Positions 17,072-25,120 of a DNA stretch of 64,000 bases are shown here, in pieces; the stretch's first letter is position 1, and each line of letters opens with the position of its first letter. The translations under genes and the position numbers were made by a program. The notes under the pieces are model-generated. The model ran no database searches, was not told where the DNA came from, and was given only the letters and a program-made list of their open reading frames with translations. Source of the DNA: Candidatus Micrarchaeota archaeon (GTDB lineage: Archaea; Micrarchaeota; Micrarchaeia; Anstonellales; Bilamarchaeaceae); contig JBBSVN010000003.1 in the NCBI GenBank assembly GCA_038046765.1, forward strand, positions 64,001 to 128,000, in the 5' to 3' direction.

Positions 17072-17222
17072 TTCGCTACGCCCCGAGGACAGTTATGAAC
17101 AGGTTAACCGTTCATCTGTCCTTAGTTCTCATTAACATTCGCCCCGAGGATCTAGTAAACGACGTTTCGTTAACTGTCTCCTCTGTGCTCCGCTCAACTG
17201 TGGTTTCGCTACGCCCCGAGGA
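17072..17222 (-). repeat. Direct repeats of the tRNA-Asn 3' end separated by hairpins
   Basis: CGCCCCGAGGA at 17079, 17140 and 17212; TTCGCTACGCCCCGAGGA at 17072 and 17205. Confidence 0.85.
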
Positions 17223-17325
17223 TGACTCGAACATCCGACCCCTTGATAACTATCTTTTGTTTAAGCCTATATCTAGACTTTAAACTGTTAACAGTCAAGT
17301 GCTCTACCTACTGAGCTATCGAGGC
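17212..17325 (-). tRNA. tRNA-Asn(GTT) with a 41-nt intron at 37/38 (17248-17288)
   Basis: Acceptor GCCTCGA/TCGGGGC with discriminator G, D arm GCTC/GAGC, anticodon stem CTTGA/TCAAG with GTT, T arm GGATG-TTCGAGT-CATCC. BHB: CUGU pairs with intron AUAG between two 3-nt bulges. CCA not encoded. Confidence 0.95.
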
Positions 17326-17663
17326 TTAAGTATTTGCCAGTTATAAACTCCTTACTAAAAGAAAAGAGCACGTTCTTATGATTTACCTGTTAGACGCAGC
17401 ACTATTAAAATACTAATGACTGCGTTAGCCGTTTACTAGTTGCATTAATTAACTTAGTTCTAGAGAATATAAATTAATCCCAAATCAATTTATTAAGCTT
17501 TCGTGTAAATTAGTAATAAATCTGCGTAACAAATCAGCTAAAGTATCATTTTTATAAAAACAATAGCTATATATACCCCATTATCTATATATATTATTTA
17601 ATAGTAGAATTTCTAAGAAATTAGAACCAAACTATAATAAAATAAAATATAGGTGAATAAGTA

Positions 17664-18869: not shown

Positions 18870-19175
18870 TCACTTCTTCACGATTTGTTTGTGGCTACAT
18901 TTATTACAAATAATTTCGAAACAATTTAACTTACGGTTAAAACTTACCTTAACCGTTTCTTCTAAAACCCATAAGGATTGGCATTTTCTGCAAAACTTTT
19001 GTTTTTGTGCCTCGCTTAATCGAATTTTATATTTTTTAACCATTTTCCATGCTAGCTCAATGTAGCGATGTGCAAGTTTTTTATCAACATTATAAACCTT
19101 TTCGGCTTCCTTTATATAAATATCAATCGCATCTTTTGCGATATTCTTTATAAATACTTTCTTATCATTCTTCAC
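18870..19175 (-). CDS. rnp4: RNase P protein component 4 (Rpp21/Rpr2)
   Basis: LAHRYIELAWKM...KIRL...KFCRKC...ICNKC zinc ribbon. Confidence 0.85.
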   Translation of the reverse strand: MKNDKKVFIKNIAKDAIDIYIKEAEKVYNVDKKLAHRYIELAWKMVKKYKIRLSEAQKQKFCRKCQSLWVLEETVKVSFNRKLNCFEIICNKCSHKQIVKK

Positions 19176-20628: not shown

Positions 20629-21408
20629 TTACCTTATATCAACTGGTCCAGCTAAAACCATCCTAAAGGAAACGTTCCCTGTTTGGTCAAAGAATTCCAT
20701 GCAAGGCGAATCATTAACTCGATGGGATTTTCCATTAGGCATTCTTAATACTGCATTGGTATCAACTGGTGCGCCGTTTTGATTCGGCATTACTGCATAC
20801 TTAAGATCTTGGTTTGTTGTTTGTCCTTCAACCCGAAAGTTTGAATTTATTGCAGAAACACTAGGTTTAATTGTTACATATCCTAAGGAATCCATTACAT
20901 GTGAATTTGTTTGTCGGTCTAATGTGTAAGTAAATGCGCCTTGATAAACTGCCATATTTATGCTTACAGGTATTCTTGATCCATTTAAATCATAAGAAAA
21001 AGCTAGAAGCGGTCCGTTATTAGTAACCGTTTGAGTTTCAATATACTTTCCGTTTGGTAATCTACCATATTGCTTTCCATTTGATGCATCAAAAACAATC
21101 TCACTAACTGAATAATACCTATTATTGGGTGCCTGTCCTTGGTTTATTATAAATGAACCGTCGATACTTGTTAGTCTAAAAAGTGTTCCTTGCGTTACGT
21201 TAGTTTGAGTTTCTCCGTCTCTAGTATAAGTCCAAGGACCCTGAATTCCCATTGCAGTTATCTGTTGTCTTGATACTTGCAAATATCTTTGTAAATTAGC
21301 TGCAGTTAATTCTTCCGGTAGTTCCTGTCTTTTTCTTGGTCTTGCTGCAAGTTTTTCTTCAATTGCTGGAGGTTTTACTTCTGGTTGCTTAAACGTTGGC
21401 GTTGCCAT
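20629..21408 (-). CDS. Hypothetical protein
   Basis: GGTGA RBS before ATG 21408 (MATPTFKQ). Confidence 0.7.
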   Translation of the reverse strand: MATPTFKQPEVKPPAIEEKLAARPRKRQELPEELTAANLQRYLQVSRQQITAMGIQGPWTYTRDGETQTNVTQGTLFRLTSIDGSFIINQGQAPNNRYYSVSEIVFDASNGKQYGRLPNGKYIETQTVTNNGPLLAFSYDLNGSRIPVSINMAVYQGAFTYTLDRQTNSHVMDSLGYVTIKPSVSAINSNFRVEGQTTNQDLKYAVMPNQNGAPVDTNAVLRMPNGKSHRVNDSPCMEFFDQTGNVSFRMVLAGPVDIR

Positions 21409-21460: not shown

Positions 21461-21660
21461 AAATTCTGCAGAATTTGGAGATGTCGCAAAGAAACGTCTT
21501 TGCGAACATGCTCGTGAAGGGTGCTCCTCTTCACGACAGCCAGAGAAGACCTTCTGCTCTTCTCTGGATTTTGTGTTCGCGAGTTTAGTGTTTTGGATTT
21601 TTTGTTCAAAATTCCGAACACTTTTACCACTTTCTGGTCGATTTTTCGAACACTTTTTGT
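21461..21660 (+). ncRNA. Candidate structured RNA or palindromic element
   Basis: Several 8-12 bp stems (see findings). G-U pairs favour the + strand. Confidence 0.4.
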
Positions 21661-21663
21661 TTT

Positions 21664-22398
21664 TTACAAGCTTTCCAAAAACTCTTCTTCTAAGAAATGT
21701 AATTTTCCCGGAACAATTATTGCAAAAGGCGATTTACCTAATTGATCTACCTTGGTTAATAGTTCTTCTATTTTTCCATAATTTATTTTCTCGTCCTTTT
21801 CTCCAATTCTTGATAAAACAGCAATTGATTTATTCGTCAAAAATTCTTCTGTATCTGTTTTCTTTATTAGTTCCAGTCCGAGTTTAGCTTCCATCGGTTC
21901 TGGTTGCGTATCTAATAAAACCAGTGTATGTGCTCCTCTTTCTAAGTTTTCCTTAATTAGATTAAACCATGAATCAGGTTTATACTTCTCTCTTGGTGTT
22001 GCAATCGAAGCTGTTTTTCCAAATTTATATATTTGTAATCCGCATTTACCAGCTGCTGCTACAAAAATCGAAGAATTATGGATAACAAGCGTTTCAATTT
22101 TTGCCTTTTTCATATCTATAAGTAATGCGCTATGCGTTGTTGCGGTTAAAGGATCGCCACCACAAAGTAATGCAATTCTTTTCTCCTTAGCTCGTTTAAC
22201 TAGAAAATCACTTTCAATTGATTCGCGTTCAAGTAGGTTTATTTTCTTGTCTAACCTTTTTTCCAGTTCTGCTATTTTTTCCTTTTCCATTGGCAAGGTA
22301 TACGCTTCTATATATATTTCATCACACTTTTTAAGTTCTTCCATGCCTAACTCTGTTAAATCAAATGCGATTCCAGTACCGATTAAAGTGAATTTCAT
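21664..22398 (-). CDS. dph5: Diphthine synthase
   Basis: IEAYT, GDPLTATTH, HNSSI, GLQIYKFGKT, GAHTLVLLD, IVPGKLHFLE. Confidence 0.95.
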   Translation of the reverse strand: MKFTLIGTGIAFDLTELGMEELKKCDEIYIEAYTLPMEKEKIAELEKRLDKKINLLERESIESDFLVKRAKEKRIALLCGGDPLTATTHSALLIDMKKAKIETLVIHNSSIFVAAAGKCGLQIYKFGKTASIATPREKYKPDSWFNLIKENLERGAHTLVLLDTQPEPMEAKLGLELIKKTDTEEFLTNKSIAVLSRIGEKDEKINYGKIEELLTKVDQLGKSPFAIIVPGKLHFLEEEFLESL

Positions 22399-22438
22399 GA
22401 TTTATTATTGATAAGTTAATAATTAATAGTTGAGTCAT

Positions 22439-22879
22439 ATGTCTACTAAACCCAAATACAAACCAAAGCCACCTAAACCATCTGCAAAAGTTCGTGCAGA
22501 AAAGGATATTATGCTTGCTACACCTACTGCCATGGCAAATATTGCAAGAATGCGCAAAGATCGAATGAAAAGGTTACCTAAAGAAGAGCTGCTTGTTAGA
22601 AATTTAGATGATGCAAAGCTTAATTACTCAAGGGTTTTAGATACATTATTTGTCTTAGGCAGAAAAGACCATGATGAATCAATAAGATTACTTGCGTTAA
22701 TTGCGCTATTAAATACTTATGGAAGAATTTTAGACTCAAAAACAGTACTAACTGTTTTTAGTGTCCGATTGCCTACTATTGATGGTTCTTTTGAAGTAGA
22801 TTTAGCTAAAAATAAGGTTACTTTTTCTTCTTTTAGAGACCAGATATTTGATATTTGCGATCTTTTAAAAACAAGCTAA
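22439..22879 (+). CDS. Hypothetical basic protein, paralogue of the next gene
   Basis: Shares TPxAMA..R..R and GSFxVDLA motifs with 22894-23322. Confidence 0.75.
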   Translation: MSTKPKYKPKPPKPSAKVRAEKDIMLATPTAMANIARMRKDRMKRLPKEELLVRNLDDAKLNYSRVLDTLFVLGRKDHDESIRLLALIALLNTYGRILDSKTVLTVFSVRLPTIDGSFEVDLAKNKVTFSSFRDQIFDICDLLKTS

Positions 22880-22893
22880 ATAGATTAATTTTA

Positions 22894-23322
22894 ATGGTTG
22901 ATCTTATGCGTGAAAAAATTCAAGTACACAGGAATAACCCAAAGCCGCTATCCAAAGAAGCTAAAATAAGAAGAAAAAGAATCCATGCAGACATAATTGT
23001 TACACCTAGAGCAATGGCGCGTGCAAATACAGAAAGACGAAAACGTTTTGCTAACTTTCCGCCTGCAATAGATTTTGATACAGTAAAAACAGAAACACCA
23101 GAAAATATTAAAAAAGCTAGAAAAGCAAGGAGTTTATCTCAAAATCAGGATGTTAAGGATGCATTAACTGTGCTTATAGATTTATATAATAAAATAATTG
23201 AATTAGGGGAAATAAAATTATCTCATCAAATTGGCAGCTTTGTTGTTGATTTAGCTGCTGGTACAATAACGAAGATAGGATCTTCTAATAAATCGTTCAA
23301 AATCGGAGAACTTTTAGATTAA
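22894..23322 (+). CDS. Hypothetical basic protein, paralogue of the previous gene
   Basis: Same motifs; start 22894 or 22906. Confidence 0.75.
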   Translation: MVDLMREKIQVHRNNPKPLSKEAKIRRKRIHADIIVTPRAMARANTERRKRFANFPPAIDFDTVKTETPENIKKARKARSLSQNQDVKDALTVLIDLYNKIIELGEIKLSHQIGSFVVDLAAGTITKIGSSNKSFKIGELLD

Positions 23323-23335
23323 TAAAAATTAATTT

Positions 23336-23740
23336 TAAGACGCGGTATTTAAGGAGTAGATATTTTACCGCGTCCTAGTTTTTCTTTATAGAAAAGTTTG
23401 CATACTATTCGCTTTAGGGTCCAAGCAACCAGCGTGTGCTTTGCTAATATCTAACCAGACTTCTCTCGCGATACGTCTGTCCTTGATACCGGGCATTAGA
23501 CAGCAAGGTCAGAGGTTTAAGACTTGCAATAGATTATATTCTAAATGCACTGTTACGAATTCCCATTTACAGATGCACAAGATTCCAAGGACAATTGTAT
23601 AGGCCTCAAACTTTTAATGGATGGCTCCTAGTTTCCTAAGATTTTTTGTTTTACCGCTCCATCATACTTGGTTTATCCAGCGAATAATATGCGTTGAATG
23701 CAAGAGCATTCAATCCTTCAAACATAAGCCCGAAGGGAAT
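23336..23740 (-). ncRNA. Candidate large structured non-coding RNA (~400 nt), family not recognised
   Basis: No ORF; many nested helices whose G-U pairs work on the minus strand; GAAA-capped hairpin; probable pseudoknot; upstream TATA box. Confidence 0.65.
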
Positions 23741-23757
23741 ATTAATACAAAAGAAAG

Positions 23758-23778
23758 ATTTAAATAGATTTATTTTTA
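23758..23778 (-). promoter_or_regulatory. BRE/TATA promoter for the candidate ncRNA
   Basis: Minus strand AAAAATAAATCTATTTAAAT, with the TATA ~20-25 nt upstream of the first hairpin. Confidence 0.5.
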
Positions 23779-23817
23779 CCTTGGAGAACTAGTTTCACAT
23801 TGTTTTCCTTAGACTAA

Positions 23818-24186
23818 CTAAAAAATTAGTTTATCTCCGATTAGGATGTTATGATTCTTTGTAAAATTAGCGTTTACTTCTAAGATGTATTTTGCTGATT
23901 CTGATGAACAAACCGTTTGAGATGGAAACATCGAAGAAGAAAGTTTTTCTATCGTAATTATTCTTTTATCTTCTGAAATAAAAATAACGTCCAGTGGAAT
24001 TAGTGTAAACATATTCCATATTTTATAGTTGCCTGATTTGTCAAAGATAAATAACATTCCCTGGTTTTTTGCTAAGGATTTACGAAACATTAATCCAATT
24101 ACTTTTTTTATAAAAGTGTCTGCCACTTCGAGTTCGAGCGATATCTCCTTTGATTTAGTTTTTATTAAAATTTTTTTAGTAAACAT
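23818..24186 (-). CDS. DUF192 family protein
   Basis: EVADT...GLMFR...GMLF...PLDVIFI...YILEVNA. Confidence 0.9.
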   Translation of the reverse strand: MFTKKILIKTKSKEISLELEVADTFIKKVIGLMFRKSLAKNQGMLFIFDKSGNYKIWNMFTLIPLDVIFISEDKRIITIEKLSSSMFPSQTVCSSESAKYILEVNANFTKNHNILIGDKLIF

Positions 24187-25120
24187 ACTCAACAAATCTC
24201 GCACGCTCTTGTTTATTGTTCGAACTTATAATAAGTGAATTTGTAGTTATTTGATTCTCATCCTTTCTAACTCCCTTTAGTAAATCGCCATCAGTAACGC
24301 CTGTTGCGATAAATGTCATTTCTCTTCCTTTTGCTAGTTCGTCTATATTGTAAATCTTATCTAAATCAGTTATTCCCATTTTGTGCGCTCGTTCCTTTTC
24401 ATTATCATCTTTGCATTTTAATCTTCCTTCAAAGTATCCTCCTAATATTTTTAATGCAACTGCAGTAATCGTTCCTTCTGGTGCTGCACCAATTCCTAGA
24501 AGCATATCTACATTGCAAATCTCAAAAGCAGTAGTTACTCCTCCAAACACATCCCCGTCAGTTATGAGTTTTACATTTGCGCCCTTTGCCTTTATTCTAG
24601 AAACGATCTCCGCATGTCTTGGTCGATCTAGGACAACAACCGTAATTTGATATAATTCTTTACCTGTTTTTTTAGCAATTGCATCTAAATTTTCTTCAAC
24701 CGATTTAGATAAAGATACAACATTGCCAATTTTAGGCCCAACTGCTATTTTTTCCATGTAAACATCTGGGGCGTGAAATAAATTCCCTTCCGGAGCTGCT
24801 GCAAATACGCAAATCGCATTTGGTTTATTTTCAGCACATAAATTAGTTCCTTCTAAAGGATCAACGGCAATATCTACCTTTAAACCGGTTCCTTTGCCTA
24901 ATTTTTCGCCAATAAAAAGCATTGGCGCTTCGTCTCGTTCGCCTTCTCCGATTACTACTGTTCCGTCAAATTCGATATCATTAAACTTAGCGCGCATCGC
25001 TTTAGTTGCTGCATCATCCGCAGCGTGTCGATCATTTTTACCAATCCAAGGGTAAGACGCGATTGCTGCTGCGATAGTAACTTTTAGGAATTCTGTTTCG
25101 AGTTGTTTAGTTATTTTCAT
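24176..25120 (-). CDS. glpX: Fructose-1,6-bisphosphatase class II
   Basis: VIGEGERDEAPML, DIAVDPLEGT, YMEK, DGDV, ATGVTDG. Confidence 0.95.
   Translation of the reverse strand: MKITKQLETEFLKVTIAAAIASYPWIGKNDRHAADDAATKAMRAKFNDIEFDGTVVIGEGERDEAPMLFIGEKLGKGTGLKVDIAVDPLEGTNLCAENKPNAICVFAAAPEGNLFHAPDVYMEKIAVGPKIGNVVSLSKSVEENLDAIAKKTGKELYQITVVVLDRPRHAEIVSRIKAKGANVKLITDGDVFGGVTTAFEICNVDMLLGIGAAPEGTITAVALKILGGYFEGRLKCKDDNEKERAHKMGITDLDKIYNIDELAKGREMTFIATGVTDGDLLKGVRKDENQITTNSLIISSNNKQERARFVEYVY

Follow-up and report, generated by a model that had tools for sequence, protein, structure and literature searches.

[quoted passage not shown] The RNA that we discuss here resembles it, as described there, in being made by a stand-alone ncRNA gene whose leader and trailer form a BHB, and in having a new loop at the junction. 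However in Thermoproteus the canonical SRP gene is missing (PMC4731332, in the same part of the text), whereas in our case there is an SRP RNA elsewhere in the host genome and the circle has no SRP match. Other archaeal BHB circles described are tRNA introns (that of tRNA-Trp being a C/D guide), rRNA introns, the intron in the 5' UTR of HVO_1309 and, in addition, circular pre-rRNAs (PMC7714728, PMC12558985 and PMC12918454, in their accessible parts). As far as those accounts go, they have in common with our RNA the BHB motif, the EndA/RtcB route and a circular product. However, as those accounts have it, each lies within a tRNA, rRNA or mRNA and the known product is the exons or body of that host, whereas our RNA has no host gene and short unconserved flanks, with all conserved structure in the excised part.

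Other classes are comparable in fold or in form. OLE, ROOL, GOLLD and raiA, which are described as linear RNAs, are in the accessible descriptions like our RNA in having a multi-domain covarying fold, a pseudoknot, their own promoter, a patchy distribution and no known catalysis, but are bacterial or phage RNAs and mostly larger, whereas ours is archaeal, 250-264 nt and flanked by a BHB. The archaeal circular omega RNAs of IS200/IS605 are also structured circular RNAs with a pseudoknot, but in the part of the account available they lie at IS200/IS605 elements and are without a BHB (PMC12558985), whereas no IS200/IS605 gene was recognised beside the window copy of our RNA, which is also without a guide segment that varies. 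In the descriptions accessible, viroid-like circular RNAs and Obelisks are likewise small circular RNAs seen as cyclic metatranscriptome contigs. To our knowledge none of these has a DNA template, whereas the circle here has a chromosomal template and is branched, not rod-like.

The known BHB circles are introns, rRNA intermediates or the permuted form of a known RNA, and the locus that we describe seems to be a gene with no other role than the making of a circle of new fold. It represents a real and new ncRNA family, in which the class of RNA is new and the route of circularisation already known. We consider it probable that this is a stand-alone gene for a covarying, pseudoknotted RNA that is released as a 258-nt circle by the tRNA splicing endonuclease EndA and the ligase RtcB and acts in trans as a stable folded scaffold or decoy for a protein partner.

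The locus is in a stretch of 64,000 nt from a Candidatus Micrarchaeota archaeon (contig C3 of the host genome, 64001-128000), the whole of which is referred to as the window. It has a DUF192 gene upstream and on the other side two convergent orphan ORFs, followed by a gene of the tetrapyrrole methylase family (Pfam), which we infer to be that for diphthine synthase, dph5. The RNA is single-copy in the host genome.

Fifteen sequencing runs are listed for 22900-24200, four of them RNA runs (two samples from one aquifer study), and when compared with 22400-24700 each of the four gave exactly one contig, 288 nt long and without mismatches, that covers only 23414-23671. The contig returns on itself after 258 nt, joining 23671 to 23414 with a 2-nt ambiguity, and its length, 288 being 258 + 30, would be that of a cyclic path assembled with 31-letter words. 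Leader, trailer and precursor were not seen in any of the four RNA runs, nor was anything else across the 2.3 kb. The circle is 100% identical to the chromosomal locus. Its joint is present in RNA run X11 and absent from DNA runs X1, X4 and X5 (0/3); X1, which is possibly the source of the assembly, has one 5,380-nt contig that crosses the locus linearly, and the cover in X4 and X5 is sparse. Expression is judged from assembled contigs of unassigned strand, and missing RNA-contig cover of flanking genes was left out of any expression ranking. Other pieces of the host genome found with 100% identity in X11 (17165-17330, 20650-20900 and 21606-21734) have a depth of 2 against 23.5 for the circle, contig depth being a poor measure of expression.

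The original prediction was of an RNA of about 400 nt, and the species found in the transcriptomes is instead 258 nt and cyclic. What it had described as two closing helices proved to be a BHB processing stem, which it missed, but its proposal of a new or divergent large ncRNA stands in that the RNA is stand-alone, covarying and pseudoknotted and belongs to no Rfam family. The two helices are separated by a helix of 4 bp (23675-23678 with 23417-23420) and a pair of 3-nt bulges (23672-23674 and 23414-23416), which together make the BHB, recognised by us after the circle had been seen. The rule for a BHB is that the cut comes after the second bulge base, and the excised piece so predicted, 23672-23415, is 258 nt, the same size as the cyclic contig; the length would be no different for other cuts made symmetrically within the bulges, so that the data place the cut in the bulges but not at a particular base. 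The mature form is most likely this BHB-derived circle of 258 nt, and since the flanks are short and unconserved the circle is likely to be the product. The parts of the gene, in window coordinates, are as follows.

23758..23765, minus strand: TATA-like box with an A-rich stretch just upstream, the likely promoter, as read from the sequence.
23693..23740, minus strand: 5' leader with a semi-conserved hairpin (23714-23738) and a lineage-specific one (23694-23713), without RNA cover and outside the circle.
23679..23692, minus strand: outer processing stem, 5' strand, pairing with 23400-23413 (14/14 standard pairs).
23672..23678, minus strand: 5' side of the BHB, made up of one strand of the central helix (23675-23678) and the 3-nt bulge (23672-23674) in which the joint falls; predicted cut between 23673 and 23672.
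23415..23672, minus strand: mature 258-nt circular RNA, from the cyclic contig and the BHB prediction, its register uncertain by +/-1 base.
23665..23671, minus strand: inner 7-bp stem, 5' strand, pairing with 23421-23427 and after ligation the stem of a 7-nt junction loop.
23615..23664, minus strand: domain 1, with a helix, an A-rich asymmetric loop and a variable hairpin; a large insertion is tolerated in L036.
23515..23611, minus strand: domain 2, with a helix, a conserved 3-nt bulge and an internal loop that holds one pseudoknot strand (23586-23593), from the homologue alignment.
23552..23570, minus strand: apical loop of domain 2 (19 nt) with a conserved G run (23562-23564), from the homologue alignment.
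23428..23509, minus strand: domain 3, with a long helix, the pseudoknot partner (23478-23485) and a tip (23457-23478), from the homologue alignment.
23414..23420, minus strand: 3' side of the BHB, made up of the other central helix strand (23417-23420) and the 3-nt bulge (23414-23416) in which the joint falls; predicted cut between 23415 and 23414.
23400..23413, minus strand: outer processing stem, 3' strand (trailer), pairing with 23679-23692.
23336..23377, strand unassigned: 12-bp hairpin outside the circle, not a family feature.

The 5' hairpins and the 3' hairpin are leader, trailer or neighbour-gene elements that lie outside the mature RNA. The 12-bp hairpin, which had been thought to end the RNA, is possibly a terminator for the RNA gene or for the convergent ORF; of the two 5' hairpins predicted, that at 23714-23738 is semi-conserved and that at 23694-23713 is not a feature of the family. 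A TATA-like box is present, as predicted, and similar ones can be seen by eye about 20-25 nt before the leader in most homologues, but a de novo motif search upstream of the RNA did not isolate the box cleanly. There is, again as predicted, no overlap of the RNA with any ORF of 70 aa or more. Upstream of the RNA at loci L024-L045 there is a short pyrimidine-rich motif that occurs near the promoter at up to three places (ahead of the A-rich stretch, following the TATA-like box and at the start of the leader) and may be the site of a regulator. At L038-L044 (genus g3) and at L033, L035 and L037 (genus g7) the trailer sequence is repeated in the 5' leader, so that a hairpin formed early in the leader would compete with the final stem of processing for the use of one strand; this may be a switch, acting during transcription, that sets the time at which the BHB forms.

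With a covariance model built from 5 sequences, 151 genomes yielded 22 copies, which belong to 19 genomes of a single family (likely of the Micrarchaeota). The central helix of the BHB has at least 3 of its 4 pairs in 22/22 copies (4/4 in 11 copies, and 3 with one mismatch in the window copy), and the BHB is also present in 7/7 full-length metagenome copies. The inner stem has at least 5 of its 7 pairs in all 22 copies, and the predicted circles are 250-264 nt in 20 copies, with 190 and 314 nt in the other two. The outer stem is lineage-specific in sequence, with a duplex of -12.9 kcal/mol or better in 20/22 copies, L032 and L036 being without a strong one. The host genome encodes RtcB (contig C3) and EndA, the latter as a 409-aa frame with two PF01974 matches (contig C4) plus a second match of 175 aa. 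Micrarchaeum has a broad-specificity three-unit splicing endonuclease, as stated in the accessible parts of PMC3239211 and PMC3488258, and we infer that the host enzyme is of that type. We regard excision and ligation by EndA and RtcB as highly probable.

Folding of region 23330-23745 gave -126.8 kcal/mol and z = -5.48 on the minus strand, a value that 0/100 shuffles reached, and z = -2.65 on the plus strand, which bears out the original prediction of a structured RNA on the minus strand. Most of the helices it listed are also where it put them: the 14-bp closing helix (23679-23692/23400-23413) has 14/14 standard pairs, the 7-bp helix (23665-23671/23421-23427) and the helices of domains 1 and 2 have standard pairs throughout, and the same is true of the 8-bp pseudoknot (23586-23593/23478-23485), which covaries among homologues. 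The domain 3 helix (23496-23506/23441-23454) has to be redrawn, being in register over the first 6 positions only, and the homologue alignment pairs these strands otherwise.

When 5 sequences were aligned plainly with MAFFT, RNAalifold found two-sided changes in 44/99 pairs. In the alignment of 20 copies to the model, which has L034 and L036 left out, includes the 5 rows that built the model and leans toward the structure, 63/83 pairs have two-sided changes and 88.9% of cells are paired, compared with 71.5% in shuffled controls and 29-41% when the partners are slid. Two-sided change is seen in this alignment in 4/6 pairs of the pseudoknot, although it is absent from the model, and in 4/7 pairs of the inner 7-bp stem. 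Among 7 distinct metagenome copies outside model building the figures are 43/82 pairs with two-sided changes and 91.4% of cells paired, with all 5 pseudoknot pairs paired and 1 two-sided change among them. The RNA has a pairwise identity of 43-93% among 20 of the 22 copies, and retention of the fold over that range implies selection.

One rival reading is that the circle is a ribozyme, either new or the remote and permuted relic of a known one, whose active site would fold only once the circle is closed. Its size and multi-helix junction, together with a pseudoknot that covaries, an A-rich loop and a tip of GNRA/S-turn-like form (the tip of domain 3, 23457-23478, is presumably an S-turn-like loop with a GNRA tetraloop), are all typical of catalytic RNAs with a tertiary fold, and in 47 columns at least 19 of the 20 copies have the same base. 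However the BHB and inner stem hold many of the bases that are most conserved, and there processing alone would explain the conservation, and there was no match to an Rfam ribozyme or intron for any copy as scanned in genomic order. Nor did we see by eye what we take to be the signatures of group I/II introns or RNase P, and on balance we think a ribozyme unlikely.

Known RNAs were considered in turn. In Rfam there was no match at the gathering score for the RNA in the window, only noise at E up to 10, and none for 19 homologue loci at E up to 1. The scans were in genomic order only, but a permuted family would be expected to give local matches over large pieces, of which there were none. RNase P RNA and SRP RNA (the latter also in permuted form) are rejected, as the RNA matches neither and candidates for both, the search for which had been proposed, were found on other contigs of the host genome: an SRP-like RNA at C2:85574-85833 (E 3.9e-17) and an RNase P-like RNA at C5:35937-36199 (E 8.5e-13), both below the Rfam cut-off. 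In each of these we see by eye what we take to be the typical motifs (P4-type for RNase P). 5S RNA and a missing piece of 23S are rejected as 5S and a full-length 23S are found elsewhere in the host genome, and a group I/II intron or catalogued ribozyme as there is no catalytic core match in Rfam for the window or the 19 homologue loci. There is no match to the Rfam models for OLE, ROOL, GOLLD or raiA. An intron of the BHB type in a tRNA, rRNA or mRNA does not fit, there being no tRNA or rRNA at the locus, a complete 23S elsewhere, and flanks of the kind described above. An RT-associated ncRNA (retron, DRT or DGR) is rejected as no RT is adjacent and RT is present in 6/19 RNA-positive genomes and 22/80 of the others in the family, and a Y RNA with Ro60 as there are 0 TROVE matches in the host genome (89.7% complete). 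The chromosomal locus with syntenic homologues, and no ribozyme match, dispose of a viroid-like replicon. Rolling-circle translation is not indicated, since the length is divisible by three in 9/22 copies and the longest Met-started frame is 19-79 aa, none being endless. The tip of domain 3 is like a 23S hairpin at about position 462, with 13/14 identical bases in 2/22 copies and 11/14 in the window copy, but the longest exact matches are of 9-12 nt and shuffles give equal ones.

The RNA has a narrow distribution among the genomes searched. By blastn it matched 5/60 genomes of the same family, and outside the family gave a single match of 23 nt, in another family, with no extension beyond it. 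A second covariance model, built from 19 sequences, found the same 19 genomes among the 99 in the family, in 10/23 genera, and in other families covariance model searches found 0/60, 0/124 and 0/132 genomes (overlapping samples, strict filters and incomplete genomes). Metagenome dph5 loci have a copy in 8/61 cases, of which 7 are full length and 6 are counted as distinct here (7 in the covariation test above), one being 98% like a known copy. The dph5 loci of two Candidatus Micrarchaeota records, with 53-54% identity in the dph5 protein, have no copy. Viral contigs were scanned with three motifs and yielded 7, 0 and 0 stretches respectively, none of the 7 scoring as a homologue, and blastn of phage records gave no match, these searches reaching close or motif-identical copies only. 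As the RNA was not found in 80 of the 99 family genomes it is unlikely to be essential.

Such a distribution is what makes one consider a domesticated or selfish BHB intron that has left its host gene and is folded only for its own stability, doing nothing for the cell. Presence is patchy within genera (5/8, 4/7, 1/2 and 1/2), three genomes have two copies each, and in three g7 genomes without the RNA there is a clean absence at the syntenic spot, DUF192 being followed at once by the neighbouring gene and the model finding no match. However DUF192 is in the flank at 9/22 loci, dph5 at 7/22 and one or other at 12/22, across several genera, and the tree of 20 of the 22 copies groups them by genus, with starred clades for g3 and g7, which together indicate long vertical retention. 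No conserved ORF and no endonuclease ORF was found inside the circle in the 22 copies, and the selection implied by the conserved fold also argues against a selfish element, which we think no more likely than a ribozyme. The RNA is long-retained, dispensable and apparently stable, with conserved tertiary-type elements.

There is some variation among the copies. In genome G002 two copies are in tandem (contig C45:2449-3070), each with its own BHB and outer stem. L036 has large insertions and L034 an internal deletion; the latter, in genome G001, is without about 60 nt that are kept in the near-identical metagenome copies L077 and L078, which may be a deletion or an assembly error.

The biogenesis that we propose is very likely correct, although several steps are deduced. 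A precursor of about 340 nt would be transcribed from its own TATA-like promoter, as the sequence suggests, and its leader and trailer pair into a stem with the BHB motif, as structure and conservation show. EndA would then cut both bulges, judging from the position of the joint and the established chemistry of the BHB, and RtcB would join the ends. The circle accumulates, with precursor and flanks unseen, in the contigs of one study. Ligation would free the C-rich strand of the central helix in the 7-nt junction loop, where it could pair with the G run of domain 2, and such pairing might lock a compact fold; the folded circle might then, at a guess, bind a protein or the translation machinery. 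Pairing of 3-6 bp between the junction loop and the domain 2 loop is possible in 20/20 copies, but shows no covariation and is no better than with swapped partners (swap test p = 0.42).

As to function, a trans-acting folded scaffold or decoy is our best guess, offered tentatively and put ahead of a ribozyme, an intron relic or a guide. Tests for a partner gave no Ro60/TROVE in the host genome, and RT does not track the RNA across the family genomes. We also suggest, more speculatively, a class of gene whose only product is a covalently closed RNA machine with a tertiary fold (a ribozyme or the core of an RNP), inactive until it is circularised: the strand blocking the junction would be removed by the tRNA splicing machinery, and the loop newly made at the junction would dock into domain 2. 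This would be a new functional class of RNA in DPANN archaea and not a permuted known RNA.

The G-rich loop of domain 2 could alternatively be that of a guide or antisense RNA, pairing with a pyrimidine-rich target in its own leader or in a tRNA, rRNA or mRNA. The conserved G run is exposed in the 19-nt loop, and several leaders are complementary to it by eye, convincingly so. However this pairing failed the swap test, the loop against its own 100 upstream bases giving -7.73 kcal/mol for native and -8.68 kcal/mol for swapped partners (p = 0.996). There was also no match to a C/D or H/ACA guide, and the loop varies little, unlike that of a programmable guide, so that we think this reading quite improbable. 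Least probable of all is that the cyclic contig arose as an artefact of the library or of assembly, the functional RNA being a linear transcript of about 340 nt, or that the spliced leader-trailer is the product, as for an intron in a 5' UTR: the evidence is from contigs only, in one study, with 2-nt microhomology at the joint, dph5 is downstream on the same strand at 7/22 loci and Haloferax has a BHB intron in a 5' UTR (PMC7714728, in the part accessible), but leader/trailer sequence is absent from all 4 RNA runs, a conserved BHB is exactly at the joint, and the flanks are short and unconserved with downstream genes often convergent or unrelated. A reverse-transcriptase jump across the stem at the 2-nt microhomology could also give such contigs.

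If, as we think, the locus is a stand-alone gene for a circular RNA, then the substrate range of the archaeal splicing machinery is widened, in hosts that are reduced-genome archaea with few described ncRNAs, and a compact natural circular RNA is offered for structure work. A search for others could match BHB-flanked intergenic folds in archaeal genomes to cyclic metatranscriptome contigs. We found no such RNA in published literature by title or abstract for Micrarchaeota, DPANN, BHB or ornate RNAs, coverage of subscription journals being limited. The accessible text of two language-model surveys (10.64898/2026.10.21.760802 and 10.64898/2026.09.22.753630) has 0 mentions of Micrarchae or DPANN, and their supplements or cluster atlases could list the sequence unannotated; that of PMC12918454 also has 0 mentions of either. 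A catalogue of circular contigs (10.1101/2022.07.19.500677, of which part is accessible) could likewise hold the sequence unannotated.

Several other features of the window and host genome are worth recording. In the window the tRNA-Asn gene (17212-17325, minus strand) has a 41-42-nt intron, and the piece 17165-17330 in RNA run X11 is unspliced. ARAGORN found only 12 tRNAs in the host genome, which suggests that there are many non-canonical introns. A 101-aa ORF at 18870-19175 (minus strand) is presumably the RNase P protein Rpp21. The host genome has two reverse transcriptase loci with 221-aa open frames, at C4:12424-12858 (minus strand; locus L076 1291-2363) and C4:70963-71385 (minus strand), which we take to be DGR-like, and at L076 the RT is split into ORFs of 150 aa and 191 aa. 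About 20 family genomes have the same RT frame of about 220-260 aa, starting near profile position 60-70, so that the split looks conserved (a frameshift, an intron or a two-subunit RT). The two basic orphan ORFs between the RNA and dph5 (22430-22879 and 22855-23322, both plus strand) have no Pfam match and are weakly alike (26%, E 1e-5), and relatives have different orphan genes at this spot beside the RNA, which resembles an insertion hot spot.
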